DNA of 63,713 bases, the filler included, from Folioceros fuciformis (lineage: Eukaryota), in assembly GCA_049999805.1 (NCBI GenBank). It is 6 parts of 6 records of this genome, joined end to end, with 100 filler letters (N's around TTAATTAATTAA, not from the genome) between each part and the next. Parts side by side here need not be neighbours in the genome. Positions count along the whole stretch, not along the records: positions 48,076 to 58,766 come from JBNGIO010005792.1; 5 more parts are not named here. One strand, 5' to 3'. The position numbers and the translations under genes were made by a program. The stretch's first letter is position 1; each line of letters starts with the position of its first letter. The notes under the pieces were generated by a model. That model searched no databases, was not told the DNA's origin, and saw only the letters and a list, made by a program, of their open reading frames with translations. Shown one piece after another: positions 3,295-61,763 of this stretch.

Positions 3295-3394
3295 NNNNNN
3301 NNNNNNNNNNNNNNNNNNNNNNNNNNNNNNNNNNNNNNTTAATTAATTAANNNNNNNNNNNNNNNNNNNNNNNNNNNNNNNNNNNNNNNNNNNN
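3295..3394. other. Artificial contig spacer N-TTAATTAATTAA-N (also 34837-34936, 47976-48075, 58767-58866, 61664-61763)
   Basis: The same 100-nt N block with a central 12-mer that gives stops in all six frames recurs five times. Confidence 0.97.
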
Positions 3395-34836: not shown

Positions 34837-34936
34837 NNNNNNNNNNNNNNNNNNNNNNNNNNNNNNNNNNNNNNNNNNNNTTAATTAATTAANNNNNNNN
34901 NNNNNNNNNNNNNNNNNNNNNNNNNNNNNNNNNNNN

Positions 34937-35341
34937 AGAGATTACTCAGCTTGGCTGGAATCGTCTGAACGGCATCGAAGTTGCGCAGCACCACCATGGC
35001 TCTGCCAATCACCCACAGCAAGTTAGGAAATTTGCAGCGCAAGGCTGCAGTGGGAGCAAAATGGCAACCACTTACCATAGCGAATGATGAGGCAACCTTC
35101 GTCGGAGAATTCACTTCCTGCATACATAAATCTGTCCATGCAATTGGGCAGGAATCACCAGGGAGCATCATCGACAAGTCGCGGCAAACCTTGCGCTGTG
35201 CGGAACCTAGCGTGAGCCAATTCAAGCTCCTCTTCCAGTGTGTACAGCTGTTTGAAGCCGGAACAGACCTTGCAAGGGCGTCGTCGACGCAGGAGACAAA
35301 GGACCGGCACGATGAGAAGCACAATGCATGCTAAGTGGGAG
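34937..35341 (+). mobile_element. 3' internal end and PPT of an upstream copy of the same copia family, sharing the LTR at 35342
   Basis: Near-identical to 41072-41618 apart from a ~140-nt deletion; ends in PPT AAGTGGGAG. Confidence 0.85.
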
Positions 35342-38300
35342 TAAAAATATAAATAAGTTGAAGGTTATTTATTTAAAGTAGCCTGCATTTAATTAATAAT
35401 AGTTATATATCGAAACTTTAGATACATAAGGGTGCATAATGAATGGTCGTGACCTAACTAACTCAACAGCCACTTTCACGGGACACCGTGAACCGGTGTC
35501 CCCACGCCTTCAAGAAGGCCACACGACCTTCCATAATTTACTTCTTACTTTCCTACACATTTGCTTCTAGCACGATCCTCTACTTTTATCTTTATGGTAT
35601 CAGAGCTGTAGCATGGATTCAGTCAATCCCTCCCAACAAGTCTGCAAAATTTGCGAAAGCAAAGATTGTATTAAAAATCTGCCACATGCATCTTTTTGTG
35701 CAGCCATTTCAGCACTTAAAAATGCATTAAGCAGATTTGGGAAGATGACTGAACAATTCTTGGAAAATGTGGTAGAACATTACTACTCTTAAGTGTCTAA
35801 GCATTATGCCGAGGAATAGAGGCAAAGGTTGTAGCAATCTTACGCTGTCTGCTGAGAGTGAACGCCAACTCCATGCTAGAATTCCTGGAGAGGTCTTCGA
35901 AAATCATATGCAAGTCTTAGAAAGGTTCTTTAACAATCACTGCAAGAGTCTTTACCAGCAGAAACAACATCAAGTTAGTAAAAATCAGCAATCACTGAAC
36001 AATAATCCAATTCCAACATTTGGATCACGCACACAACCTAGAGAGAATTTGCCTTGTTCACACCACATTCCTCAGCAAAGTTTGTCAAGATTTGTAGCAC
36101 CCCGTCCCACTTTATGTCATACATGTACTGATAGGTATAATTCCTTTCCACTTCCTTCTGATCAACTCGTTGTTGATGTGTATGAACTAGTAAAGTCACA
36201 AGGCCAGATAACCAGGGGTAGAATCACTGCATTAGAAGATAGATTAGTAGCAAACAACACTAAATTGGATGCACTAAGCCTGCAAAGTCGCAACCTAGCC
36301 ATCATCTCACAATCCCAGGAGAAACATAAAGAACCTGAGTATTTTTGAGCATTATGGTTTTGAGAACCTGCAAGAGCCAATTGCTCCAGTTGTACTTGAG
36401 ATGAAGGCAATCGTTGATTCTCATATTAAGGCACTTGACGAGATGGAGTCACTTGTACCAAAGTGCACTCAATAATTCTGAAATTGTGTACATGTCACAC
36501 GGCGGACGTGGAGGCAGAGGCAATCGTGGGCGCTACCACCTACAACACGGAAGATGACATGATTCTGACGAGGAGGATACTGAGCATTCAGAGGAAATTG
36601 AAACACGACCTGTAGACAAAGACGTTGAGCAGGCACCTAACCAGGCTAGCTCGTCGGTCCATCATCATCCTACACCTCATCAAATTAGAAATCTGGCTCA
36701 GTTAGCTGCAGCTGCACAAGCTGCACAAGCCGCAAGGGCTGCAAGATTAGCAAGGGCTGCAGCTGCACAAGCCGCCAAAATGGCACAACCAGTAACACAT
36801 CTGAAGATAGATTTTAAGGAAAAAGATAGGTTCTCAGGGTCCAATTTTGATATCTGGGCCATGCGTGTCACCACCATACTTTGAGAGCATGAGTTGTGGG
36901 ACACAGTCAGTGGTACTAATGCCAAGCCTAGAAACAATGCTACAGTAGCAAAAAAGGCGGCATGGGCCAGATTAGACCTTAGGGCACTAGGTGTCATCCA
37001 ATCAACCCTTGATGCATCCATGATGCATCATACACAAGGTGCTGAAACAACAAAGGACGTCTGGGACTCTCTAACCCAAATATATCAAGTTACAAATGGA
37101 AGTTCAATAGTGCAGGCCACAAGGGCCTTTTATACTTGCCATATGAAGGAGAATGAAACCGTTGAGCAGCACATCATTAAGTTTCGAACACTTCGAACCA
37201 AGCTCATCTCTAGTGGAACACCAGTCAATGAGCTTCAAGCTTCAGTGGCCCTCCTTCTTTCATTACCGGACAGCTATCGAACATTTATAAGCAATTATAG
37301 CTCTACACTTAGAGCAGCAGGTCAGCCACCAGGGATCACTCTCTCTGACCTAATTGGAGCTCTTCTCGAGGAGGAGTCCACACATGCTACCAGGCGAGGA
37401 AGCAATTTCCAGAGAGGTGAGTCCTCCAACAGGGTGGGTGCTCTACATGAACAAGGGCCCTCGGCGACCACCTTCTCGACCATCCTGGCAGCCTAACACC
37501 AACAATGCTTGTAAGAAACGGTCTCCACAAGCTGGACCTGCAAAGAAGAAGGGGCCCTGTAATTGGTGCCTCATACCTGGCCATTACGAATCAGAATGTC
37601 GTAAGAAAAAGGAAAATGAGCCTCGGAGGTCTGCACCTCCACCTGAGTCTAACATAGCACAAAGAAAGTCACAAACTTTGCTTGCTGTATGCCTTGTGTC
37701 CACAGCTTCAGATCAGTCCGCATGGTTTCTAGATTCTGGAGCATCAGCTCATTGCTTTCAGTCAAGGCAGGCATTCTCTGAGTATGAAAAGATACCACCT
37801 GGTCAAGAAGTCCTCATGGGTGATGACAGGGGTAGTCCCATTGCTGGTGTAGGAACAGTTTCAATACTACTTTCAGATAAGTCCACACTGTACCTATAGG
37901 GTGTCCTCCATGTTCCAGCTATGGTTAAGAACTTAGTAGCATTATACAAGTTCTCAATAGAAACTGGTCTTGACACTTCCTTTCGTGGCACCACTTGTGT
38001 CATTTCTAATCCAAAGTCCAAAGGGAAAGTGAAAGCCATAGGCACACCTGTCAATGACATTTACAAATTAGACTTTGTTTCTAAGCTATGCCAGCCTCAT
38101 GCACATGTTACCCAAGCTCAGCAACAGGAGAAGGATGCCATGCTATGGCACTGCCGCTTGGGGCATGTTAACTTCGATAAGTTGAAGACTATGGTGGCAT
38201 CTAACAGCCTATACAGAGAAAAGTTCATGCTAAAATTTGCAGACAAGCAGTTTTGTGAATCCTGTGTATTTGGGAAGCATCATCGACTTCCCTATAAAGA

Positions 38301-41300
38301 TGTCAACCCAACTAAAGCAACAAAGCTACTGGAACTTGTTCATTCTGACCTTTGTGGACCTATGTCCACATCTACCTTTGGAGGAGCAAAATATATTTTG
38401 TCCTTCATTGATGATTGGAGTCGATACATCACTGTATATCTGATCAAGTTCAAAAGTCAAATCTTGGGATGCTTCCAGGAGTATGTCATGTATGCGTAGC
38501 ACCAAACTGGTTCTCTCTTGAAAATTCTGAGCAGTGACAATGGTGGCGAATATGTCTCAGATTCCTTCTCGGATTATTGCAAAGAGTTGGGGATATCCAG
38601 GCAGTTTACCACACCTTATACATCGTCGCAAAATCCGATTGCAGAATTGAATAATTGCCGCCTCTAGGAAATTGCAAAGTCAATGCTCAAGCTGGCTGGT
38701 CTATCCCGCGGCTATTGGGGTGAGGCCGTGGCCACAGCAGCCTACATCATTAACAGGTTGCCAACAAGTGTGTATGAGGGAGCAACTCCTTACGAGCGGT
38801 GGACTGCACACAAGCCACGCATCAACCACTTAAGAATCTTTGGAGCACTTGCCTATGCACACCTGTCAGAAGACCAGCGTGTAAAGCTTGATTACAAAGC
38901 AAGGAAGTTTGTCTTCATTGGATACACACAGGGTATAAAAGGGTACAACTTTTCGACCCTGACACTAGAACCACTACGCACTCACGTAGTGTCATCTTTA
39001 ATGAACAGCTTCTACTCAAAGCACCAGCACTTGACAGTGTGAGAGAGGCATCAAGTGAGTCAACATACCCTGAGTTAGAGGATGACCACATAGATGTTAG
39101 TCACCCTCCAGCAGCACAAGTGCCAGCTGCACCTGCTCAAGTATCCAGACCGCCTAAAGGTATAGATTCAGTGCCAAGTCATTTCCTTGATGACGATTTG
39201 CACATCCATGATGACGTAGCATCAGATGCACATGGAAATAGTGACCTGGACATTATGTTAGATGAAACATCAACAGTTGTACCTGTTCCAATCATTGAGC
39301 CAGAAGTTGAGCAACCAACAGTCTTGTTACGTAGGGGCACTGACCTAGGAACCAGGAGGCACACCTCTTCACCATCTGAATGGGTGAACCTGCCTCTTTG
39401 GCCTTAAACCTTTCTAGTACAAGATGACAGTAACCCCATGGACATGGGTGATCCACCTACTTATCAGGCAGCACTTAACTCACCTGATGGTGAGAAATGG
39501 AGAGAGGGTATTCAATCTGAGTACCAATCGCTTGTGGACAATAAGACATGGGTCCTTGAAGATCTTCCGCCTGGAAGAAAGGCTGTTACCTGTAAGTGGG
39601 TATTTAAATGCAAGTTAGATGCTGAAGGCAAAATTGCACGCTACAAAGCCAGATTAGTTGCTCGGGGGTACAGCCAAGTTGAAGGCTTGGATTATAATGA
39701 AACCTTCTCACCAGTGGTGAGGGCATCTTCCATTCGAGCTCCATTGGCAATAGCAGCACAGCATGACTATCTCTTACAGCATATGGACGTTAAGACCGCC
39801 TTCCTCAACGGGAACCTTGAGGAAACTATCTACATGCAGCAGCCTGAAGGGTATGTAGATCCTGCACATCCCACCAAAGTTTGCAGATTAGTGAAAACTA
39901 TCTATGGGTTGAAGTAGTCTCCCAGGGAATGGTTCAAACGAATCGATACCTATTTGAAAAAATGTGGGTTCGTCCAAAGCGAGGCAAATAGTAATGTATA
40001 CATGCTGAATGACAAAGATGGGATAGTCTACTTAGCTCTCTATGTAGACGACACGGTTATAATAGCAAGCAATCCAGCTGCCATGGCCAAATGCAAAGGT
40101 TTCTTGACAACTGAGTTCTCTATGACTGATCTTGGTCAGTTGACTTTCTTCTTGGGTATCCGTATTCAGCAAAACCTGCAATGGCATATGATATTCATAC
40201 ACCAAGGGCAGTTTGTTCAGCAGGTGTTAGCTAGATTTCGGCTGCAAAATGCAAAAACCAGCTCCAACACCGATGGCAGTGGGAGACAAACTTACACTAG
40301 CGCAATGTCCAAAGACTGAACAAGAGAGCACTGAGATGGCCAAGGTACCTTATCGATCTGCAATGGGAGTATGTATATATTTCCGTAATTGGACAAGGCC
40401 TGAGCTTGCACATTCAGTGGGAGTAACCTCGCAATTCCTATCCAACTACGGAAATGCGCACTGGCATGCAGTCCAACGAATATTGAGATATCTTGGTGGC
40501 ACACCAAATCACGGGCTGTTATACATTAAAAGACCATAGAATCTCCTACTAACCTGTTTCTGTGATGCTGACTGGGCATCCGATGCTAACAGTCGTAAGT
40601 CGATCTCAGCACACTGCTTATTACTCGGCAAGGATGAATGGAACTCAACAGTCATTGCATGGCATAGTAAAAAGCAACAGGAAGTTGCTTTATCGTCAAC
40701 CGAAGCGGAATACATCTCTACTACTACAGCATCTCAGGATATCATACATTGTAGAGAGCTCCTAGGGTCTTTGGGAGCACCTCAACCTGCGCCAACACTT
40801 TTGTTAAGTGATAATCAATCTGCAATAGCTTTGGCACAAAATCCTGTCATGCACGCATGTACAAAACACATAGAGATTAAGCATCATTTTATCCGTCAGG
40901 TGATAGCAGAAGGCCAAGTCACATTACAGTATGTTCCAACAGATGCAAACATAGCTGATCTGCTTACAAAAGCCTTGCCTAGGGAAAAACATGAGAGATT
41001 CGCCAAGGCACTGGGTCTGTCACCTAATCCTGATGCATGAAAGCACCACACACTCTAACCACTATGCATACAGAGATTACTCAGCTTGGCTGGAATCGTC
41101 TGAACGGCATCGAAGTTGTGCAGCGCCACCATGGCTCTGCCAATCACCCACAGCAAGTTAGGAAATTTGCAGCGCAAGGCTACAGTGGGAGCAGAATGGC
41201 AGCCACTTACCATAGCAAATGATGAGGCGACCTTCGTCGGTGAATTCACCTCCTGCATATATAAATCTGTCCATGCAATTGGGCAGGAATCGTTAAGGAG

Positions 41301-41870
41301 CATCATCGACAAGTCGCGGCAAACCTTGAGCTGTGCGGAACCTAGCGTGAGCCAATTCAAGCTCCTCTTCCAGTGTGTACAGCTGTTTGAAGCTGACGCA
41401 GATTTTGCAAGGGCGTCGTCGATGCAGGAGACAAAGGACTGGCACGATGAGAAGCACAATCACAGTCTCCAGCTCGAAGACGGCCATGCTCATTGCCGCC
41501 AGTTACTACCGACACCGACTGGAACCCTAGCTGCTTGACAACGCAAAAGTTCTAAGTACCCGATGCTGGAAGAGGCGAAATGCCGAGTTACCAAGGGTGA
41601 ATGCATGCTAAGTGGGAGTAAAAATATAAATAAGTTGAAGGTTATTTATTTAAAGTAGCCTGCATTAATTAATAATAGTTATATATTGAAACTTTAGATA
41701 CATAAGGGTGCATAATGAATGGTCGTGACCTAACTAACTCAACAGCCACTTTCACGGGACACTGTGAACCGGTGTCCCCACGCCTTCAAGAAGGCCACAC
41801 GACCTTCCATAATTTACTTCTTGCTTTCCTACACATTTGCTTCTAGCACGATCCTCTACTTTTATCTTTA
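35342..41870 (+). mobile_element. Full-length degenerate Ty1/copia element (LTRs 35342-35594 and 41619-41870, PBS 35595-35606, gag-pol ~36780-41040)
   Basis: LTRs differ by 3 substitutions and 1 indel; PBS TGGTATCAGAGC; CNWC-H-C knuckle, WFLDSGAS, WHCRLGH, HSDLCGP, YKARLVARG, LYVDD, KHIEIKHHF; several stops and frameshifts. Confidence 0.96.
41081..41493 (-). pseudogene. Putative spliced antisense accessory gene of the copia element (~112 aa, N-terminal hydrophobic helix)
   Basis: ATG at 41493; intron 41210-41137 (GTAAGT..CCTAAC..TGGCAG); one internal stop lies at a different codon in the second copy. Confidence 0.5.
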
Positions 41871-45741: not shown

Positions 45742-46757
45742 GTCTCCTATAAGTTCATTTTTGCCACAATTTCACGATAAGGCTGGCCGAGAGGTATAAA
45801 AGGGAATGGGATGAGGCAAGAGCCAAGGTTAGGAGTGAGGCAAGAAGACCGAAGAAGGGAAAGGGTTCAGCCACCGCAGTGGCCGAAGTAGCAACCGTGG
45901 TGGGATCAACCATGGTTGCCGAAACAACAACCGGTGTGGCTGAACCAGCCACCATAGTGGAAGGAGGAATGGAAGTACTGGAACCAACCACCGACGAAAC
46001 TATGGCAGGGGAGCATGCAACACCCCTGGAATGGAGGAGGCAGCCACCCTAGGACAGTCAATAGGAGGAGAGGGTAAGGACCTCTTTAGCAGGGGGCCAT
46101 ATTGTGTTGCGACATAGGGATGAGGATACCCATGTCCCTGGCTTCCAATTATATGGTGAGCGGGTGCTCGCTCTAAATGTGTATGTGGTGGTTCTATAGC
46201 GGAGATGGGCACACTAGTCTAGGGGCAAACTAGGTTAGGTTTTTATTAGAGAATAGTATGCTAATGAATTATGATCCAAAGATTGTTGACTTTAGGAGCA
46301 TGCCAGGAAGGTATAATCATTTCTTAAGACTCTGAAAGGTTGCGATAGTAATGGTACTCCAAGGCTGAATGTACAAGGGGCCTTGTTATGTCTCTCAAGG
46401 AGACAATTTCAGGTGTGAGCTTCCATGTGTTGAATTTGTGCGTTGTGGGTTGGAGACATCCAATCGATGAAAGCATGATTCGGCCTGCTGTCCTCTTGTC
46501 ACAAGAGGACCAGGACGATCCTTGGGTGGTCGAGAGCTGTGTGACCCAGCTTCGCGACTGGTGTGGCTAGTGGAAGGGGTGCTCCGCACCTGTGAGAAAG
46601 AGAAATTTTTGAAGAAGGTGAGGGTGGTAACGCAAGTTTCGCGAAACCCCTGGAAAGTCGAGAGGGAGCGCGTTTTCACAAAACTCTTGTAAAGCCGTCC
46701 GACTGTGATTTTTCCCTTCCCCACTCTACTGTCTAACTAGGCCGTGTTTAATCTCTA

Positions 46758-47010
46758 TGAGGGGTTTGTGTAACCCAAGGAGGGGTTTGTGTGGCCTAAG
46801 GAGGGGTTTGTGTGGCCCAAGAGGGGATTGTGTGTCCCAAGGAGAGGCCTGCGTGGCCTAGGAGGGGACCGTGGGTCCCAAGAAGACGCTTGTGTGGCCT
46901 AGGAGGGGACTGTGTGTCCCAAGGAGATTCCTGCGTGGCCTAGGAAGAGATTGTGTGTCCCAAAGAGAGGCCTATATGGCCTAGGGAGGGGTCTGTCTGA
47001 CCTGTGGAGG
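46758..47010. repeat. Degenerate ~21-bp tandem repeat
   Basis: AAGGAGGGGTTTGTGTGGCCT-like units, about 11 copies. Confidence 0.8.
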
Positions 47011-47229
47011 AGGATTGAGTGAATATTTGGTGCGAGAGAAGTGTGAGTGTTTGAAATTGTGAAGCGCTGAAGAAGATTGGAGGTAGATTGTGTGGAGCAT
47101 CAGCGATGCAATCAAGCGTCGTGGTGTGGTTGGCCCTAATCTACATCTACAAGTGAGATTTGGGTGGAAAATAACATGAGTATGACTTTGTGTGCATGAG
47201 AATCAGCCTGCACAGACCATAGCTCTATA

Positions 47230-47975: not shown

Positions 47976-48075
47976 NNNNNNNNNNNNNNNNNNNNNNNNN
48001 NNNNNNNNNNNNNNNNNNNTTAATTAATTAANNNNNNNNNNNNNNNNNNNNNNNNNNNNNNNNNNNNNNNNNNNN

Positions 48076-48590
48076 TGGAATTTGAAATACCACTCCTTGG
48101 GTGCCTGCTTCAAACCATAAACACTTTTCTTTAACCTGAACACCAGACTCTCTTTGCCCTTCTCAATGAAACCCTCTGGTTGCTGCATGTATACCTCTTC
48201 CTGGAGATCACCATGCAAAATTGCCGACTTCACATCCATCTGGACAAGTTCCGCGTCGAGCCTCGGAACCAGACCAAGAACACATCGCAAGGTGGTCATT
48301 TTGACAACCGGTGAGAAAATCTCATCAAAGTCAATACCTTGCTGTTGCTTAAAACCCTTCACCACCAATCGTGCCTTGTACTTGGGTTTGCCATAATGGG
48401 GTGTGTCCTTCATCTTATACACCCATTTGCATGGCAACGCGGTGTGGCCGAACAGATGAACAGGACCATCCAGGAGAGGATGCGTAGTTTGTTGTCAAAC
48501 TCTGGATTGCCTAACGGATTTTGGGCAAAAGCAGTGGCTACTGCGGTGCATCTTATTAACAGATCTCCTAATAGGGCTGTGGATTTTTAG
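48076..48590. mobile_element. Copia fragments in opposite orientation: RT on minus (48076-48437), integrase on plus (48438-48590)
   Basis: YKARLVVKGF, QMDVKSA, YGLKQAP on minus; GVAEQMNRT, FWAKAVATAVHLINRSP on plus. Confidence 0.85.
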
Positions 48591-48946
48591 AATAAATGAA
48601 AATATGCAGAATATTATTCATTGATTAATTGGCAGAATTACATTGTGTCTATACATGTATATTATATACAAGACAATAAATCAAACTTAAACTACAGCCT
48701 TTCTACGAAACGGTACACCCTTTATGAAACGCTGCAACCCTAACGAACGGGTATGGTTAACTAACCTAACCAGAACAGAACTGGCTCTAATTATTACTCA
48801 GCACTTATTATTCATTACTCCCACTTGTTGATAATAATTCAGCCATGTTCGCAACCGCCGGTACCCCCTTCAGCTTACTCCCCGTGAAGAGCTTGAACTG
48901 AAGACACACTTGATTACGCCCCAGCTAAGAGAGCTGCTAGCACAAG

Positions 48947-49974
48947 ATGCCGTCTGAGGGTACAGATGCCGGTGTGAAGGCAGTTGAGCTGAGGTGCGCC
49001 GCGCTCATAAACCTGCTATTCTTGATTTCAAGATTGCTTTGTGAGCTCCTTCACCAGAAGGTCGAACAACTGCTGCTGCTCACCGCCGCTACCATGTCTT
49101 CAGATCCCTTTGATCACACACCTGGACGCCGCCGCCACAACCGTGATGCTCTAGGGCGATTCGCGCTAAGGACAACTACCACAGAGCCCAAGGTTGAAGA
49201 GGAGAAGAGGATCCTGCCCGTCGGAGTGAAAAGGAAGGTCGGTCGGCCGCAGGGAACAACCAAGGGTTTCCTCGAGTGGCACAGGCTCGGTGTGCTGTAG
49301 GGTGAGCCCAGCATGGCCGGTCCTTCGGATCTTCAGCATCATCCGCCACCACCCCCGGTGCTTGAGGAGGAGGTGGTTATGCCCTTCACCAGAGTGCTCA
49401 ACCTGGATGTGGCTTACTACAGCAACATCTCCAAGAACCGCATCCCTGTGAAGCTTCCGAAGCCCATCTGCCGTGGTGAAGAGACGAAGATCGTGAACTG
49501 TGGCACGCTGGAGTTCCCTTCGCTCTCTGATCTGGTACAGAGCCTGGGTTGGTCTTGAGGAGCTGATAATGAAGCGGGTGAAGGTTCTTCGATGTAGATG
49601 CTTCCCTGGACATGTCGTAAGTCTATACAATAAGTATCTGCTGCTTCCCTTTCTTGCTTTCGCTGCTACTACAATTTCTGTTTGTAAGTTTCCTTGTTTC
49701 TTTAACACTTGCTAATTGCTCCCACTTACTGTGGACAGAGTCCAACAAGCGGATCAAGGAGGAAAGAAAGTTGGAGGATGGAGGGAGAGCTTCCGGTTCA
49801 GAGGTCAAGCCCAAGGGAGGATATCACTTGAAGTCTTGCAAAGAATGGTCGCCCGATGCCTACTACGAGACTGAAACTGAAGATGAGTCAACCTTTGACA
49901 CTATTGAGGCAAGAACTGAGATAGAGATAGAGTTGATTTCTGATTCTGATAATTCAGTCTCTTCGGGCTTTTAG
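48947..49974 (+). pseudogene. Putative spliced antisense accessory gene of the copia element (~301 aa; AT-hook-like motif, acidic tail)
   Basis: ORFs at 48947 and 49313 share a frame; intron 49617-49738 joins them in frame to the 49654 ORF; the three stops are TAG, TGA and TAG. Confidence 0.55.
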
Positions 49975-50306
49975 AAACAGTTGGCTTAATTTGAACCGGA
50001 CAGGAAAGCTTCTGCCCCTCCCATTCCCAAACGCTGCATGTGCTTGTGATGAGCTTCTCTGCTCAAAGCCTTAGTTAGTATGTCCGCTGGATTGTCTTGA
50101 GTCGGAACATACTGTAACTCAATTTTGCCTTCAGTCACAAGCCCTCTTATATAGTGGTATTCTACTTCCACATGCTTTGTACGCGCGTGAAACACTAGAT
50201 TTTTAGCTAAAGCCATTGAGCCCTGACTATCAGTGTGGATTGTTGTGCAATTAGGTGTCTGGATTCCTAATTCCTTGAACAAGAGCTTACACCACACGAT
50301 CTCTTT

Positions 50307-50476
50307 GGCAGCTGCTGTCAAGACCCGATACTCAACCTCGGCAGCTGCTGTCAAGACCCGATACTCAGCCTCAGCAGCTGCTGTCAAGACCCGATACTCA
50401 GCCTCGGCAGCTGCTGTCAANNNNNNNNNNATACTCAGCCTCGGCAGCTGCTGTCAAGACCCGATACTCAGCCTCG
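50307..50476. repeat. 33-bp in-frame tandem repeat (EAEYRVLTAAA) inside the copia RNase H region
   Basis: GGCAGCTGCTGTCAAGACCCGATACTCAGCCTC, about 5 copies around a 10-N gap. Confidence 0.85.
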
Positions 50477-53449
50477 GTTGAAGACAAGGCCACTGTCGGC
50501 TGCTTCTTGCTTGACCAGAAAACAGGGCCACTAGCAATTGAGATGACATATCCTGAAACTGACTTTCTGCTATCTTTCAAGGTTGTCTAGTGTTCTTTCG
50601 CTAGGTTTTCCAAGAACTGTGAGAGCACACTAGTGGTATATGCAACTTCCAATCTTGTGGTATTGCTTGCATATGTCAACTTGCCTACACCTTGCCTCTA
50701 AGGAACTCCTCTCATTTGTTCCTTGTCTTCTTGAGTTGTAGGTGACATGAGCTTGCTGAGTTTCTGACCAAATGGCATAGGTGTTGAGACAGGTTTTGCT
50801 TCCTTAAGACCTAGTTGCTCAGCACATTCTAAAAGGTAACGGGGTTGTGTTAGTGTCATCACGTGAGTCTACCTGTTTCTTTGAACATGAATTCCTAGAC
50901 AGCTCTGTAGGGGTCCTAGGCAATTCATTCTGAATTTTGTTCCTAACACATCTGTGATGCTAGTGATAAAAGCCTGACTGTTGCTTGACAAAATCAAGTC
51001 ATCGACATAAACTGCCAAGTAACATATAACAGTCTCCTTGAGGTAAATGTACAAACTACTATCAGCTTGACTTTTGGTAAACCCTAGAGCTAGCAACTCT
51101 GTTTCTAGGGCTGCATTCCATTTCATGGCTGATTGCTTCAAGCCATATATGCATTTGATAAGTCTGCAAGCTTGATGTTCTTTGCCTTTTACAACATATC
51201 CAGGTGGCTGTTGCATGCATATTTCTATGTCCAGCTTTCCATATAGAAATGCTGTTTTAACATCATACATCTGCAGCTCATAGTTGTAATATGTGGATAT
51301 GGCCAGGATAATTCTGAGAGTTGAAAGCTTGACAAATGGAGAGAAAGTTTCCAGGTAATCCAATCTAGGGATTTGTGAGAAGCCCCTTGCAACCAAGTGG
51401 GCTTTGTACCTACCAAAGGTACCATCAGCTTTGACTTTCAACTTGAAGACCCACTTGCAAGTTACCAATTTTCTGCCTAGAGGTAAGTCTGTGAGCTCCC
51501 ATGTTCCATTCTCAATTAATGAATCATACTCAGACTGAATTGCCTTTTCCCATTCTTTGTGGTCAGGTCTACTCAAGGCCTCCTCATATGATTGAGGTTC
51601 AATGGGATCAAGGGAAGAGGTGTCAGCATGAACTGCCACATGAGAAGAAGGATTTCTGAAGTCTGGAGCTTGGTAATAGTCTAGAGGCTGCCTCTGACGA
51701 GTAGGGTACCGTCGAGGCTCTACTACAGGCACATCAAAGTGGTCTGGATTAAGGTCAGCGTGGTCAACATTGTCAACGTCAGCTGGTTCAACTTGTTCAG
51801 GAGGATGTTGGTCCTGTAAGTCCAGCGACGCAGGCTGATTTTCAGGTGCATTGACTTGTGCAGGTGCTGCAGCTACTATGTCCTCAACATCAACTAGCTC
51901 AAAACCAGCTGCTGGATATTCCCCACCTACAGGAGCAATGTCCTCCATAGGAACAACCTGAGTACCATGATCAGATTGATCAAAGGAAGTGTCATCATCA
52001 GAGGGAATAGCTTCAACAGCTTGAGGAGCTTCCACTTAGACCCAGTTGCGGTCTTCATCAAATATAACACTCCGTGCATAAATAACTTTGTTCTTAGGTA
52101 CATCATACAGCTTGTATGCTTTAATGCCTTCTGTGTAGCCTACCATGAGAAGTCTTCTAACCTTGTCTGACAGCTTTTTCCTTTTCTCTTTAGGTATAAA
52201 AGCATATGCAACACATCCAAATGTGCGCAACTGAAGAATAGAAGGCTTACGCCTTGTAAAGGCTTCGAAGGGAGTTTGGCCTTCAACAAAAGTAGTTGGC
52301 AACCTGTTCTTCAGATAAGTTGCAGTCATTTAAGCTTCTGCCCAGTATGGCAATGGTAGCTGTGCTTGATGTAATAGAGAGGATGTCATCTCTTGCAGGG
52401 TCAGATTAAGGCGCTTAGCAACACCATTTTGCTGAGGTGTGTAAACTACTGTCAGCTGGCAACCAATTCCCTCAGCTGTACAGTAAGCTTGGAATTCATT
52501 GGAGGTAAACTCCCCCCCATTGTCTGATCTCAATATTTTTAGTTGCTTTCCAATCCATCTTTCAGCATACTTGATATAATCTCTGAAATGACTGAAGCAC
52601 TCATTTTTCTGTTTGACAACGTAGGTTGTAACAAACCTAGTCTTATCATCAGTAAAAGTTAGGAAGTATCTACCTCCTCCTATGGAGTTTTGGGAGAGAG
52701 GTCCACACAGATCTGTGTGTACTAATTCCAGAACCTCAGAGGCTCTATGTGGGGCCTTATTTTTGAAGGCTGCCTGGTGTCTTTTGGAAAGGATACAGGG
52801 CTCACATAAGGGAAGTGAAGCTAAATGCCCTATGGGGCCATCCTGGTAAAGATTACTAACAGTAAGTTTCTGAAGTTTTGCTGAATGTGGATGACCTAAT
52901 CTCTTATGCCACAACTTAGCTTTTTCTGTCTGTTGTGCAGATACAGCAGTGGCATCTTGTGTCAAATGTGACGCTGGTACACTACGATCTGTATGGAGAC
53001 GGAACAAGTCTCTATCCGATGACCCATAGGCAAGTACTTTACTATGATTACAGGCATCTAGCATTTGACAGTCTGTCTGTGTGAATAGAACGTGACAATG
53101 ATTGTCAGCATTGAGGTTTCTGACTGAAATCAAATTGCGAGTCATGTCAGGAACAAAATAAACATCATGTAATGTTAACACATGCCCTGACGGAATTGGC
53201 AGGTCTATGGAACCACGACCAGGAGACACTAGGGATCTGTCATCACCTAGGTACACATATTGATCCTTAAATGTTTTGTATGTATGAAATGATCCTTTGT
53301 CAAAACAGATGTGAGCTGTAGCCCCTGTGTCTAGATACCAATCTAACACAGGTCTACCTTTTATATTTGCTGATAAGCTAGCAGGATACAAGAAGGAACT
53401 TGTTGCAAACACAGTTGTACCTACTGTGAGGGCTGAAGGGGTTGGTTGT

Positions 53450-56400
53450 TGTTAAAATATAATCCCGTTTAGGCATAAATACATTATATTAATTAAACCA
53501 CCCGAAACGGTATGGCTGGTGGAACGGCATGGATGGTGGAACGTTGCACGTGACACCCATAGGCAGTTATTTAGTAAGGGCGGTGGTTGGTATATTGTAA
53601 TTAATTAATTTGTAAGACATTTTTTCTGCATGCAATAAAGCAACTACTTTGCACGCTACTCCTAGTCTCCATCTCTGACATGGTATCAAAGCCATGCAGA
53701 TACGCCTAGAGGAGCTTTGGAATCATGCCGCGACGCAACGCTACTTCTAGAGGCAGACACGGATGCAGATTTTTCAGGGAATCTCCCGCTGAAAGTCAAC
53801 CATCTGGACACGCAGCGCACATCTCCGTTGAGGCTGCGTGCTCCCCTAGAAGGGCAGGCGCCCGGTGGCAAACCCTCCCCAATCCGCGTTGGTTTCTACC
53901 TACGCAACGCGGAGGCCCCTCCGACGCGCATCGCGCCCATGATTCCTATGCCCCCATGTGTCACGCATGCTGCGCGATACAGGATTCCAAGACGCGCGGA
54001 GCACCTGCAAGGCACAAAGACAAACCTGACATCAATTCCCTAAAGGGGCTGAGGAAAATTCTCGACAGATCACAGAATACCCTCAGCCGCGTGGAGAGAT
54101 TGTTGTCCAGCTTATTGTCCTCCCAAGCCCCCTCTAGGATCATCGCCCAAGGGTGTGCCACAGGCCCTCAAGTTGGTCAACCCCCAATTGATGAAGCCAA
54201 GACAAGCACCCAGCAAATTGCAGAATTTCTGGGCCAAATCTTGGCCACTTCATCAAGATCAGACAGCCTCCACTAGATCCTTCCGCTGCAAGGGAGTAGC
54301 AGCAATTGAGAGCACCAGATCTGAACCGGCGCGATGCATTCCGCGTTCCCTGCCAAGGCCTCACTTGGTGCTCCCCCATTGGCCCACTTGGAACACCTCT
54401 TCATGTAGTTGGGACACGTCCGTTAGAAAAACCCTAATCACACGCTGGTTTTAGGGTTTGTAGCTACATAACCGACGCACCCCTACGTTGCAATTACCCC
54501 TGGCGAGACCTATAATTGGGCTCAGGATCTAGCAGCCACCACTGTTGATGGCCCCTGAACTCTGCGCCCAACTAGGTCTCGCTGGAGACAACACGACGTG
54601 AGTAAGTGAGACAGGGACAGGCAGCAGTGAGACCCACCATCACGGCTGCATAGCTTAGGTGTTCATGTTCACCGCTGCACAGCTTAATTCCCTCATTTGT
54701 GGTTTCCAGAACCTCACACTACACCCTAATCCACAATCAGCTATGGCATCTAGCAGTCTACCTACCTTCACCTCGGAACTTAAGGAGAAGGATAGGTTCA
54801 AAGGGCATGGGTACAACGTCTGGAGGGTGAGGATGAAGGCCACCTTGCTGGCCAGGGGAGTTTGGACCACTGTAGATGGAACATACCTCAAACCTGACCC
54901 GTCCAGCAGCCCAGCACCAACCCCAGAAGAGATTGCCAAATGGGAGCAGTTCAAAGCAATTGTTGTCGCGCTGATTATTGGTGGACTGGACTCAGACCTT
55001 GTCCCTGATGTGGAATACCTCACATCTGCACACGCCATATGGGATCAGTTAGAGAAAACCTACAAAATTCAGAACATGATGACTCTATGCGCAGTAAGGC
55101 AGGAGTTCTACTCTCTGAAAATGAAGGAGGGAGACAAAGTAGCCTCCCACGTCTGCAAGTTTAGACACCTACGTGCTCAACTTACAGCTATGACAGGAGA
55201 GAAGATGTCGGAAGTGGACGCTATCGCCCAGCTCCTGACCAGTCTCCCTGCCTCGTACCAGACCTTTGTGACAAGTCAAAACAGTCCCATACGTGCTGCA
55301 GCTGCTGCCTCCGGCCAGTCAGTGACCATCATCCTGGAGGAGGTGATTGGTGCACTGTTCCAGGAGGAGCAGAGTCACACTTTCTCCTCAGCTGCCAAGA
55401 ACAGAGGGGAGAAAGCATTAGTGACCAATTTCCGCAAAGGCAAGTCAAGGTTCCGAGGAGGAATAGCACAAGGACAGAGGGGAGAACCCTCCAATGCTGC
55501 CAAACGCCCTGGCAGTTGCAACTGGTGTGGCCTCCTTGGCCACTGGGCAAGAGAATGCCGCAAACGGAAGGCAGGTGAGCCCCAACGTCAGCCAAAGGCT
55601 ACAGCAAATGTAGCAGTGAAGCAGAGCAAATCAGACTCCAAGGCCCCCGTGAAGATACTTACAGTATGCCTGTTCAGCACACAGAGTGATGACAACTGTT
55701 GGTATCTTGATTCGGGGGCCACCACTCACATCTGCAAGAAAAAGGAACTTTTCAGAACCCTAGACCTGACGCAAACAGGGGGTCAGGTATTTCTTGCGGA
55801 TGAACAAAGTAAGTCAAGCTTACCTATTCAGGGTAGAGGCACTTGTGTCTTCACACTGCATGATGGCACAGAGTTAACCCTAGATGATGTCATCTATGTC
55901 CCAAGCATGGCCAAAAACCTCATGTCTATGAGTCAGATCATGCGTCAACGCATGTTCTACATGCATGCAGACTCTGAACACTGCTGTTTCTACAGGCAGT
56001 CATCTCCCCACACATGTGTTTTCGAGGGTCTGCCCGAAAGTAACCTGTACAGACTTAACATTACCTGTACAAGCTACTCATATGAGGCTACTCACTCAAT
56101 CTCATCTTTTAACCTAAGTCAAGAACAGCAGGCCTTGCTTTGGCACGCCCGTTTGGGCCACATCAACAAGTCCAAGTTGATAGACATGTCAGTCTTAGGA
56201 TGCCATCGTGAGCCTCTACCGAAATGCTTTAAACAACTACCTGTGTGTGAACCTTGCATACTAGCCAAGCAAAAGGAGCTGCCACTCCCTAACTCACCTG
56301 CACAGAGAGCCACAAGAGCCCTTGAGTTAGTCCATGCTGACATCTCGGGCAAGGTCCATGAGCCCTCACTAGGAGGTGCCCGCTACTTCTTCACTATAAC

Positions 56401-58766
56401 TGATGACTACAGCCGGTACACATGGACATTTCCAATGGAACTCAAGAGTGACACTTATGGATTTTTCAAGGATTGGCTTACCACTGCTCAGCGACAGTCT
56501 GGGCAGCTCTTGAAGACCTTTAGGACAGACAATGGCACTAAATTTGTTAACTCCAACTTTGAATACCTGCTGCAGTCTCATGGGATACTGCACTAGACAA
56601 CAGTGCCCTATACGCCCCAACAAAACGGAGTATCAGAAAGGAAAAATCAGACTTTACTGTCCATGACAAGAAGCATGTTGTTATGGGCAGGCTTACCTCA
56701 GGGTTATTGGGCGGAGGCTATAGTGACAGCGACGTACATCCTCAACCGTGTCCTCACCAGCACTGTCCCAAACAAAACCCCATTTGAGGTATTTTGGAAC
56801 AAGAAGCCCAGCCTCCTCCACCTCCGGGTCTTTGGATCCCGCGCTTATGCCTATATACCTAAGGAGAAAAGACATAAGTTAGACAGCCGCGCTGAGGCAC
56901 TTATCCTGGTTGGCTACAGTGAACACTCAAAAGCCTACAAGCTGTATAACCCAGACACTGATACTATTGTTCTTGCTAGGAGCGTCACCTTTGTTGAACT
57001 CCATAGTCCTGCCTCCGAACACAGCCCACCAGAGGACCCTACAACTTCCTCTCCGGCTGATCAACCTGCTGTTTTCCCCCTTGATGATGATGAGCCTGAA
57101 CCCGTGGTTCCACCTCCTGTGCCTGCAGAAAGTCACAATTTAGACCTTCCCCACCACATTGAGGCAGACGCAGATGCATATGTTGAAGGCGAAACCATAG
57201 ATGCAGACACCATGGATGCCATCCCTGCTCAACCTGTGTTGGACGCAGAGGGGGATGTAGGGCTAGCTGATGATACACATACCTTGGCTAACCCTGCACA
57301 GCCTCCACCCCAGGTTGACCCAGATGTCGATCTCCCCCACCGTTCCACATGTCACAGACCTCCTCCATCTGAATGGAAGGAACCTCCCTATGCATCCACT
57401 GATTTTCGAACCCATGCAGTCCCCTCCCTCGGACCAGCTTTGTCCTTACCTGAGGAACCCACTACATTAACTCAGGCATTCACAGGTCCTCAACGTGAGC
57501 AATGGAAGCAGGCAGTTGAGGAAGAATACCAATCCTTGGTGAAGAACAAAACCTGGACGCTCACTGATCTCCCTCCAGGCAGGAAAGCCATATCCTGCAA
57601 ATGGACATTCAAACTAAAATTAAATGCCAAAGGTGAAGTCGCCAGGTTCAAAGCACGACTTGTGGCGCGAGGATTCACTCAAGTGGAAGGGCTGGACTAC
57701 CAGGAAACATTCTCACCTGTAGTTCGCAGCCAATCCATTCGCCTCATCCTTGCTTATGCCACAGAGTTTGACCTTGACCTCGAGCAAATGGACGTATGCA
57801 CTGCCTTCTTGTATGGGATCCTTGAGGAGGAGCTGTATATGTTTCAGCCCGAAGGCTACGAAGACCCTGCACACCCGCATCAAGTTCTCAGGTTACTGAA
57901 ATGTATCTACGAACTGAAGCAAAGCGGCAGGGTATGGTATCTTACAATGCATGTTTACCTAATCAGCATTGACTTCGTTCAGAATACTGCTGACACAAAC
58001 GTATACATGCTCATGAGAGGAACCTCTACTGTGCTCCTTGCTCTCTACGTCGATGACTTGATCCTTGCTACAAACGACCATGCACTGTTAGCAGACGTAA
58101 AGAAGCAGCTGCACCAGAGGTTTGACATGAAGGACATTGGAGAGTTGAGGTACTGCCTAGGCATTCAAATTCTGCGAGTTCGCGATGCTGGGATCATGTA
58201 TATACACCAGGGAAAGTATATCACTAAAATCCTACGCAAGTTCCATCTAGACCAGGCAAGACCTGCCACGACTCCATATGCAGTTGGCACCAAATTAACT
58301 CGCCGGCAGAGCCCACAAACCCCAGATGAATTGAAGGACATGGAGGGCGTACCTTATAGGCACGCAGTGGGTAGCTTGTTGTTCGTCGCCAACTGGACAC
58401 GGCCCGATATACAGTACGCTGTCAGCATAGTATCCCAATTCCTTGAGTGTCCCGGGAGAATTCACTGGACAACAATGAAACGAATTTTTCGTTATCTCCA
58501 GGGCACGATAAACTACGGCCTCATGTACAGGAGAAGTGGGGACCAACGACTCACCTTATCTGGTTACTCAGACGCTGATTGGGCCTCGGATTCAGACTCC
58601 AGGCGTAGCATTTCCTCTTATTGTTTTCTTCTTGCTTCAGCAGCAGTCACCTGGAGCAGCAAAAAACAGACCACCATTGCCCTTAGCTCCACTGAAGCTG
58701 AATATAAGTCGCTGACTGAAGCAGTGTGGAGGCAAAACCCCGGGCACTGATTGCCAACGGGTTCCA
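53450..58766 (+). mobile_element. Ty1/copia element (5' LTR 53450-53680, PBS 53681-53692, gag-pol ~54743-58750), 3' end missing
   Basis: TG...CA LTR, PBS TGGTATCAAAGC; CNWC-H-C, WYLDSGAT, WHARLGH, RTDNG, LYVDD, YSDADWA; one premature TAG at 56594. Confidence 0.96.
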
Positions 58767-58866
58767 NNNNNNNNNNNNNNNNNNNNNNNNNNNNNNNNNN
58801 NNNNNNNNNNTTAATTAATTAANNNNNNNNNNNNNNNNNNNNNNNNNNNNNNNNNNNNNNNNNNNN

Positions 58867-59930: not shown

Positions 59931-61763
59931 AAGTCTATACGAGGAGGAGTCGCGTCTGTTCCGATCGTGTCTCTTACGATGATGCCTATTCAGAATAACG
60001 AGCTTCACGAAAGGAACCAGTTTCACACAGAGTGCACTTTTTGCCTTCCTCCTCATAGTCTTAAGCTACACAGCAAAGCATCTGCAAAAATTCGACTGTA
60101 CTTGCTGAACAGGGGCACACCAAAGAGTGAGACAGTCCGGCAACACCAAAGGAACTTGGTTCATTTAGATACCACTTTCACCTCTCGTGCTGTATACATC
60201 GAGGCAAAATTGATGCCACTATTCTGCATGAGCTCTGCAAGGTGCCCTGTAAGGCGCATCGCACCTTGTCCCACAGTTTCGACTCCGACCTTCGTCATCA
60301 CTTTCCCATGCAGAACTGCAATACGACCACGGGTAAGCAAGATGGCGCAAGCAATGCTAAGGACACCCAGCAAGTACTTACACTCCTCCCGATGCTCTGG
60401 TCGTTGGCATCAGCAGTTGACAGGCACAGAGTCCTAGATCCCCCAAATTGCATACGTCATAATCAAAAGGTCGGTCGGCTCTCCATTTGCCCGACCGGAT
60501 GCACACGCGAATGCGAACGCTGTCTCGACCTTGGACTCACCCGGCACCGCCTTCTCGTTTCACATCTGCCACACTAGCTGAATTTATGACAGTTCTGACA
60601 TCCAACCGAATCAGAGCTACCGCTGCATACGTCTCTGGCTTTCTTCTGGCCACAAATTCTCCAACGGCACCTCCGATCCAGCATCGCAGAATAATGGATC
60701 AGCTCTCAAATCCTCCTCCTTCCAGATCCGTACATAACCACCTCAGAAAAAGGCAGCTCGACCGATCTCCTCTCCAGCCGCAAGACCTTCTATCGCTTCC
60801 TGGGACGCGGGCAAGAACCGCAGCCGCAACCGCCTAACCACCCACCAATTCAGGCACGCAAGTACACCACGGAGGATCTCAAAGGCTTCCACCACAGCAA
60901 ACGTGCTCAGATGTCGCGAATCAGCAACACAAAATTTGCAAGGAGTAATTGATCTTCCAATTGACCATATATGGCTCCCCTCTGCCGACTTGTTGCTGGC
61001 CAACTGCTCTTTCCGGTCTCCTCTCCTCTACTGCCCTGCTCGGAGATGGAAATACCAGATCCGAAGGGATCGGATCAGATCAGATGAGGAAGAATGGGCA
61101 GGCGGGGAAGGGATAGGCAAGAGCTTGGCTGCAGCAACGCCAGCTCAGGAAAACATGGTGCCACGCCGCGTCGGGTGTGGTCCAGCAGGGGACGTGGAAG
61201 TCGGAGAAGGGAAGGTAGAGTGAGAGGGGTAGGACTGCGAGAGTGGAGCAACCGTTCTGCTTCTGATTTCCTGGAAACAGCGCGCAACCAGAGCGAACCA
61301 GGCCGGTTTAGGTCGGTTGGTGGTTCTTGGTCAGACGACAGCGGCCTCCAACCAACCTTGCCCTTACGACAGGCACCCTTGTTCACACAGCCTGGCTGAA
61401 CTCGGAGGTCCCTTCTGCTACTCTGCAGTGTATTGCATGGTTGCCTGCACGTTATATCTTCTGCATCCACCGCCCTAGCCCGTCGTCTCTCAGGAGGGAA
61501 AGGACAAGAGGAGGAGAAAGACTTCTCTATGAATCCAATATGGACGGATTTTCCCATGATGGGACTTGGTAGGTCGTGTGTGAGCCCTGCGGGCGTTCTA
61601 TTCGTGCTGGCTCAGCGTAGGGCTGGTGGGATTTCGTAGATCTTGCGGAAACCTACTCTTCGGNNNNNNNNNNNNNNNNNNNNNNNNNNNNNNNNNNNNN
61701 NNNNNNNTTAATTAATTAANNNNNNNNNNNNNNNNNNNNNNNNNNNNNNNNNNNNNNNNNNNN

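Follow-up and report, generated by a model that had tools for sequence, protein, structure and literature searches.

A candidate two-exon antisense gene, now decayed, in the spacer behind pol of a low-copy copia element of Folioceros fuciformis

This report concerns the spacer that follows the pol gene of a Ty1/copia retrotransposon in Folioceros fuciformis. The stretch of DNA that we analysed, here called the window, is 63,713 nt long (GCA_049999805.1), and the spacer lies on its 10.7-kb piece at 48076-58766 (JBNGIO010005792.1), where the element's pol is on the minus strand. We propose, at what we judge to be even chances, that the spacer holds a decayed, two-exon accessory gene of a low-copy copia family, read on the + strand and hence antisense to pol. 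The gene in this copy cannot be functional, and since there is one dead copy and a set of indirect signals, we offer the proposal as a lead rather than a result.

What does the antisense frame look like? It starts at ATG 48947, on the + strand opposite the minus-strand pol, and contains in-frame TAG 49298, TGA 49556 and TAG 49595. Exon 1 is 670 nt long, and its split codon joins the frame of 49741-49971, which ends in TAG 49972-49974, 11 nt from the pol stop. Given the purine run at 48883-48864 and the pol stop at 49986, the spacer is ~1.10 kb long, and the 301 codons fill nearly all of it. A preliminary description of this DNA put the distance from pol to the polypurine tract (PPT) at ~1.15 kb; the features that it listed are all found where it put them, on the + strand opposite a minus-strand Ty1/copia pol. 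Everything that it foresaw in a product of ~301 aa is likewise present in the 301 codons, namely a leucine-rich N-terminus, KRKVGRPQG, a polyproline stretch (PPPPP) and an acidic tail. Part A of exon 1 (48947-49297, +) is open for 117 codons and carries the ATG, the leucine-rich helix and the basic KRKVGRPQG; in 48947-49165 the + frame is the sole stop-free frame of the six. The first break, the in-frame TAG at 49298-49300 (+), separates it from part B (49301-49519, +), which has the proline run and is, by its periodicity and by related contigs, the most coding-like and conserved block. There follows an ambiguous 3' end of exon 1 (49520-49616, +), with TGA 49556 and TAG 49595 in frame and a register that differs from that of relatives near 49521. 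Beyond the candidate intron, the open frame of exon 2 (49739-49974, +) is basic and then acidic to its stop, and it is the only stop-free frame in 49741-49971; the other five carry 3-9 stops in the exon 2 region. With the purine tract (48883) on one side and the pol stop (49986) on the other, the + strand frame as a whole (48947-49974) has the location and orientation of an antisense aORF-3R. It had also been pointed out that each of the three stops is one C-to-T change from CAG or CGA. Each is indeed one transition from a sense codon, but this is true of any TAG or TGA and so has no weight as evidence.

Base use by codon position is stronger evidence than openness, and the signal is as strong as or stronger than that in the element's own pol. 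This periodicity was expressed as a chi-square per codon and compared with 2005 simulated open reading frames (ORFs) of 75-130 codons and the same make-up. The three open pieces give 0.16 (48947-49297), 0.29 (49301-49555) and 0.355 (49741-49974), where pieces of pol give 0.10-0.19; the corresponding P values are 0.035, 0.0005 and <0.0005. For smaller pieces of the + strand, each set against 3000 random windows, P is 0.16 for 48947-49165, 0.025 for 49166-49297 and 0.0003 for 49301-49519, then 0.55 for 49520-49615 and 0.56 for the candidate intron, 49617-49738, and finally <0.0003 for 49741-49974. Followed along the sequence, the periodic signal extends over ~48970-49520, is lost over 49520-49720 and returns over 49720-49975. 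The aperiodic stretch coincides with a GC trough (0.39) and a strong excess of T, a combination that fits the make-up of an intron flanked by exons. The claim of antisense coding in these frames, made in the preliminary description, is borne out to this extent: there is a coding-type signal in them, and it is interrupted where the intron had been placed. The GC content of third positions (GC3) is 0.69-0.70 in part B of exon 1, with A at 5-6% of third positions (0.70 and 6% when taken over 49301-49555), and 0.34-0.45 in pol. A codon score trained on eight long ORFs elsewhere in the window puts the proposed frame first of six for all three pieces, by small margins. Within exon 2 the first half gives P 0.185 and the acidic second half <0.0003, and when its sole tandem repeat, (GAGATA)2.5, is taken out P for the exon is 0.006.

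The candidate intron (49617-49738, +, 122 nt) has the sequence features of the U2 type: it begins with GT and ends with AG, carries a branch-like motif 20-40 nt before the AG and a 3' part rich in pyrimidines, and is lower in GC than the exons. The donor would be GTAAGT at 49617-49622, the branch-like motif is GCTAAT at 49711-49716, and the acceptor would be CAG at 49736-49738; an exon 1 of 670 nt puts the intron in phase 1. Pyrimidines occupy 0.65 of positions -20 to -3 before the candidate acceptor. The GC content of the intron is 0.39 and its AT skew -0.53, with flanks at GC 0.52-0.64. The donor is most likely GTAAGT 49617: of the 60 pairs that join the two frames, its pairing with the pyrimidine-rich CAG has the best motifs for donor and acceptor, yet this pairing leaves three stops. 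It had been claimed that a canonical intron links the frames exactly. The motifs, the phase and the aperiodic, AT- and T-rich stretch agree with that claim, but the donor is not unique, as four alternatives leave fewer stops. A GT..AG stretch of 36 nt just past TAG 49298 was considered as an intron and rejected by eye; it is too short, and the stop precedes it. As an observation apart, three copies of GTAAGT fall within 113 nt (49617-49729), at 49617 and 49684 on the + strand and at 49729-49724 on the minus strand, and the whole window has 31 copies for 21.8 expected.

Is the spacer peculiar to this copy? Two DNA runs of one sample contain the candidate-gene stretch, and contigs from four runs were compared with the window over 48076-50420 at an identity threshold of 80%. 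The spacer and the end of pol are low-copy, with a summed word depth of 20-160 and zero-difference contigs at a depth of 10.7-14.7 (records 2, 7, 9 and 14). One of the zero-difference contigs spans 49364-49589, so that the register and the TGA in this stretch are real in the sample and are not slips of assembly. At least three relatives of ~80% identity are found in contigs of the DNA sample, with the block 49369-49642 colinear with pol. The first related contig aligns with 49369-49642 with 54 differences and 1 gap (~78-80% identity); the second aligns with 49390-49635 with 55 differences and 5 gaps, and also with pol at 49998-50313, with 49 differences; the third lineage aligns up to 49520, then at 49717-49763, and then at 49881-50234, with 69 differences. 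Since several diverged lineages have the block behind pol, the spacer (its B block at any rate) was not captured by this copy alone; capture in a single copy had been named in advance, in the preliminary description, as fatal to its proposal. In these contigs the identity is 78-80% for the block 49369-49642 and 84% for the end of pol. Indels within 49369-49519 are compensated within 6 nt in both contigs that have any. From ~49521 two of the related contigs are one letter shorter, up to 49635-49642, and the third stops at 49520.

Among the 40 best-supported differences 29 fall in pol at 50034-50181, and 24 of these 29 are at third codon positions, which indicates that the lineages diverged while pol was under selection. 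By our arithmetic, from 15.5% overall, the implied divergence of third positions in pol is ~39%. The B block, at 20-22%, has about half of this divergence, and for that reason it looks constrained, though the 80% threshold favours such blocks and the other parts of the spacer fall under 80%.

If there is a gene, how would it work? Exon 1 would run from ATG 48947, 64 nt inside the purine tract, and would be clearly coding-like to ~49520; the intron would be the T-rich, AT-rich stretch that ends in CAG 49738, and exon 2 would extend to TAG 49972-49974. Such a gene would fill the spacer and lie tail-to-tail with pol. Its intron would be antisense to the genomic RNA of the element, could not be removed there, and would presumably be copied at each retrotransposition; because it is not spliced out, it would persist. 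The product, of ~270-300 aa, would have an N-terminal hydrophobic helix, a basic KRKVGRP patch like a nuclear localisation signal, a proline run, the B block and an acidic tail. By analogy with other elements, its most likely role would be a regulatory or accessory one in the nucleus, and the antisense transcript encoding it might begin within the 3' long terminal repeat (LTR) or close to it. As no relative of the product was found, we infer this function solely from the layout and from other antisense ORFs.

A number of observations weigh against this proposal. First, the antisense frame of this copy, with its three in-frame stops, is not an open reading frame. A second + strand frame is open from 49497 to 49712, avoiding TGA 49556 and TAG 49595, and when this is taken with the change of register in the relatives near 49521, the breaks of this copy may amount to one stop and one register change rather than three stops. 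The splice sites are far from forced: GT-AG pairs whose donor falls in 49500-49700 number 198, and those 60 are drawn from them. The same two frames are also connected by four further donors in 49535-49584, with the same or an adjacent AG and fewer stops: 49535 (with AG at 49739-40) and 49548 leave one stop, and two remain with 49578 or 49584. By itself, openness is weak evidence. If at most three stops and a single intron, 60-200 nt long with a GT[AG]AGT donor, are allowed, the longest path is 303 codons, and in 200 first-order Markov resamplings of the spacer, with the same dinucleotide transition frequencies, the mean was 228 codons (sd 40), the 95th percentile 293 and the maximum 364. With any GT donor, the fraction of 400 resamplings that reached the observed length was 0.145, 0.015, 0.062 and 0.16 when zero, one, two and three stops were allowed. 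The path statistics are thus marginal, at P ~0.04-0.16. Neither 48947-49165 (P 0.16) nor the first half of exon 2 (P 0.185) is significantly periodic. Periodicity is moreover strand-symmetric, and the mirror frame on the sense strand is open for 181 codons, 49166-49711. In the second related contig 303 unlike letters replace the 362 of 49636-49997, and a pol relative of 84% identity (run X4, record 22) differs from this spacer below 50001. Finally, the LTR and the PPT are putative, since the window has no second LTR by which to confirm them.

The predicted product adds to these difficulties. Exon 1, with X at its stops, gave 405 word candidates in a protein search and none at E<=0.01, and exon 2 gave no candidate among proteins of 42-135 aa. 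Two exon 1 matches among 1,835,955,588 representative proteins of all lengths were judged spurious; they are internally repetitive and match in 7 and 6 weak stretches. No Pfam family, AT_hook and Transposase_28 included, matches the exon 1 pieces or their read-through at E<=1, and a sequence search of the PDB gave 0 matches at E<=1 for exons 1 and 2. The Atlas search had no usable match for 48947-49297 and a best score of 0.89 for 49301-49555. Confidence in the structure predicted by AlphaFold2 (AF2) is limited to one helix, residues 5-51. The prediction was made from exon 1 without an alignment, again with X at the stops; the mean predicted local distance difference test score (pLDDT) is 53.5, and it is 88-96 in that helix. 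With no homologue and a single confident helix, the nuclear, DNA-binding or anti-silencing function put forward in the preliminary description gains no support from these results; nor does the transcription from a 3' LTR that it proposed, as no 5' LTR in the window confirms the LTR.

Some details of these searches deserve mention. In an Atlas cluster that scored 0.86, 18% of the members bear ATHILA; we regard this as a lead only. For exon 2 Pfam offered just NESP55 (E 0.19; 11.8 bits, where the cut-off is 35.4). A metagenome scan with 49301-49555 produced 356 pattern matches, 2 of which passed tblastn and were judged by eye to be chance: each is part of a long ORF (1063 aa in one case, 329 aa and open-ended in the other) with bacterial-looking neighbours, and they share just ...LNLDVAYYSN.... 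Is KRKVGRPQG an AT-hook, or AT-hook-like, as had been suggested? The core of an AT-hook is R-G-R-P flanked by basic residues. Here the core is V-G-R-P, with V for the first R, and no Pfam match appears at E<=1, although models of short motifs such as AT_hook (PF02178) are easily missed by the filters of HMMER. The suggestion is not upheld; to our reading the sequence KRKVGRPQG is no less like a classical nuclear localisation signal than like an AT-hook.

Might the antisense gene be a passenger? An ancestor of the family may have captured, at the DNA level and in antisense orientation, a host gene fragment of two exons and an intron that plays no role for the element. Capture of genes by LTR elements is known, as stated in a review (PMC7264820). 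GC3 is 0.62-0.70 in exon 1 as against 0.34-0.45 in pol, and GC content is 0.52-0.64 in 48915-49589 (exon 1) and 49725-49859 (the start of exon 2) as against 0.40-0.51 in pol at 49995-50309; the exon-intron-exon pattern of composition is what a genomic gene fragment would show. On the other side, no host or other protein like exon 1 was found among 1.84 billion representatives, none like exon 2 among proteins of 42-135 aa, and no similar stretch elsewhere in the window. The frame has its own ATG and stop and spans the spacer from end to end. The B block, for its part, appears to have been kept in at least three diverged lineages at roughly half the divergence implied for third positions in pol. 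We regard capture of a passenger as unlikely.

Improbable too, in our view, is that there is no gene at all, with frames open by chance in a GC-rich, stop-poor spacer and a conserved block that acts in cis in the RNA or DNA of the retrotransposon. An open path like the observed one does arise in 1.5-16% of shuffles, the protein is an orphan with three stops, alternative splice pairs are many, the AF2 model is mostly of low confidence, and the periodicity of exon 2 is mainly in its acidic half. But two separate pieces with periodicity at P <=0.0003, each in precisely the frame that one intron would link to the other, are not to be expected of non-coding DNA, and tandem repeats account for just 15 nt of the periodicity. 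As to a cis-acting element, Rfam returned 0 matches at E<=1 for 48076-50420.

That the real gene is instead a sense ORF, an extra ORF at 49711-49166 downstream of pol of which the antisense frame is merely the mirror, strikes us as very improbable. It is true that this ORF is fully open for 181 codons where the + frame has three stops, that an uninterrupted ORF of such length occurs in just 5.5% of 400 shuffles, and that its mirror phase lets it share the periodicity of 49166-49519. The periodicity stops near 49520, however, while the sense ORF continues to 49711; exon 2 (49741-49971), which is outside the sense ORF and has 3 stops in the mirror frame, is periodic as well; and in 48947-49165, also outside it, the mirror frame has 4 stops and the + frame alone is stop-free (the piece itself has P 0.16). 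The first Met of the sense ORF is at about residue 122, its product has no Pfam match and is rich in Arg, His and Leu, as in our judgement antisense readings tend to be, and the codon scores, sense versus +, are 0.02 versus 0.06 in B, -0.11 versus 0.00 in A and -0.30 versus 0.17 in C. Because the signal ends at ~49520, exon 2 is periodic outside the sense ORF, the Met is late and the sense codon scores are lower, we prefer the + strand.

With the antisense gene as our preferred reading, a further step may be considered: that selection keeps, in a copia lineage, a spliced antisense gene whose product is an orphan nuclear protein, and that the intron survives retrotransposition because it is antisense to the genomic RNA. 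We are inclined to doubt this bolder proposal. Searches for transcripts were made in contigs of the four runs; no 49616/49739 joint was found, but these runs are mostly DNA, and the result says nothing on expression. The one run guessed to be RNA (X4) has a single contig of 1450 nt (record 22) that matches pol at 50001-50333 at 84%, and none on the spacer, which again says nothing on expression of the candidate gene. If the guess about this run is right, a related copia family with another post-pol region may be expressed. In a third run of the same sample (X3), C>T changes (103) and G>A changes (71) dominate the differences from the window over 48076-50420, and the majority of its contigs are <95% alike. 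The pattern is as expected of bisulfite-converted DNA of the same sample, which could yield the methylation of this copy.

The element that carries the spacer is a dead, 5'-truncated fragment. Its pol (protease-integrase-reverse transcriptase-ribonuclease H; 49986-53451, minus strand, from Pfam and the ORF map) is broken, and gag is missing. Pfam places RVT_2 in 50869-52035 (E 1.2e-54) and Pol_BBD, gag_pre-integrs and rve in 52330-53451, all on the minus strand; the integrase is upstream of the RVT_2-type reverse transcriptase, which is the Ty1/copia order. The ORFs 52330-53451, 52036-52329 and 50869-52035 are split by in-frame stops, and the frame shifts before the last ORF, 49986-50453, which ends in TAA 49988-49986. 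The ribonuclease H part of pol contains, at 50307-50477 and around a gap of 10 Ns, about 5 copies of a 33-bp unit (83% matches). No gag upstream of pol and no second or 5' LTR for this copy is found within the window, so that of the two LTRs, gag and PPT of a Ty1/copia element there is the purine run only, at 48864-48883. Read on the minus strand, this candidate PPT (48883-48864) is GGGGAGTAAGCTGAAGGGGG. It is followed by a putative remnant of the 3' LTR (48585-48863, minus strand), 279 nt long, AT-rich and low-copy, the ends of which are not TG..CA. A single contig covers 48585-48859 of it, and its word depth is 20-40, as against ~1e4 in 48076-48584.

The latter segment is a mosaic of another, very abundant copia family, with a word depth of ~10,000 where that next door is 20-160. 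By eye, a minus-strand piece of reverse transcriptase occupies 48076-~48440 and a plus-strand piece of integrase ~48440-48584. Breaks in many contigs fall at 48437-48441 and also at 48584, the point at which the putative LTR remnant meets the other copia. Two more copia elements are found in the window. The plus-strand element at 34937-41870 has direct repeats (34937-35594 and 41072-41870) of 389 nt at 94% and 272 nt at 98.5%; merely ~30 nt separate its pol stop (~41040) from the repeat, and there is no spacer gene there. A third copia, on the plus strand at 54659-58750, has long open gag-pol frames (645 and 717 aa) and is cut by the end of the contig, which leaves its post-pol region out of view. 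An array of 20-21-bp units (…AGGAGGGGTTTGTGTGGCC…), in 8 register copies, occupies 46734-47011. The window itself is a chain of separate unplaced contigs joined by five N44-TTAATTAATTAA-N44 spacers, with stops in all six frames, at 3295-3394, 34837-34936, 47976-48075, 58767-58866 and 61664-61763; neighbouring pieces therefore need not adjoin in the genome.

How does the candidate gene compare with known systems? Some plant Ty3/gypsy lineages are known to have antisense extra genes, a trait that is as yet unexplained. According to the review cited above, ORFs of this kind lie between pol and the 3' LTR in Grande (gene23), RIRE2, Retand, pvRetro13 and the fungal Boty, and at least one of the products is nuclear; the review calls for attention to antisense and spliced transcripts (PMC7264820). 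In common bean all 15 families with antisense ORFs are Ty3/gypsy, and two copia families have an env-like extra ORF in sense (PMC4093653). In Retand 97% of the clusters encode a Transposase_28 domain, and the spacer is 2.9-6.6 kb long (PMC11963269). The candidate resembles the gypsy antisense ORFs in its position between pol and the 3' LTR, in its orientation opposite to gag-pol, in its lack of similarity to proteins of known function and, by analogy, in the nuclear or regulatory role that may be suggested for it (PMC7264820, PMC4093653). It differs from them in that the carrier is Ty1/copia. Unlike the antisense proteins of the Retand/Tat group its product has no match to Transposase_28 (PF04195) at E<=1, and the spacer, at 1.1 kb, is shorter than the 2.9-6.6 kb of Retand (PMC11963269). 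An intron is proposed here, and the word 'intron' occurs 0 times in PMC7264820 and PMC11963269. A literature search of limited breadth found no antisense ORF, with an intron or otherwise, described in a copia element.

Two further systems lend themselves to comparison. The antisense product of human T-cell leukaemia virus (HTLV), HBZ, is a spliced, nuclear, basic leucine-zipper (bZIP) protein. The HTLV antisense unit runs from the 3' LTR into the region behind pol and env, and for the candidate gene this would be an analogy of layout only; the candidate, known from its sequence alone, has no similarity to the viral gene and no match to a bZIP family. The antisense promoter of HTLV lies inside the 3' LTR (cited in PMC7264820). 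The second comparison is with engineered elements, and the principle at issue is the behaviour of an intron on the wrong strand. In reporters of the his3-AI type, an intron antisense to the RNA of the element is not spliced from that RNA. The same logic would apply here, with the difference that the reporters are engineered cassettes and the present arrangement would be natural. If a copia lineage does maintain such a gene, copia would have its first described antisense accessory gene, a natural counterpart both of the reporters with an antisense intron and of the antisense genes that retroviruses drive from the 3' LTR. A compact, intron-bearing antisense gene in a copia family would indicate more than one origin for genes of this kind, and at ~1 kb it would be a small, tractable case in which to ask what the proteins of antisense ORFs do.

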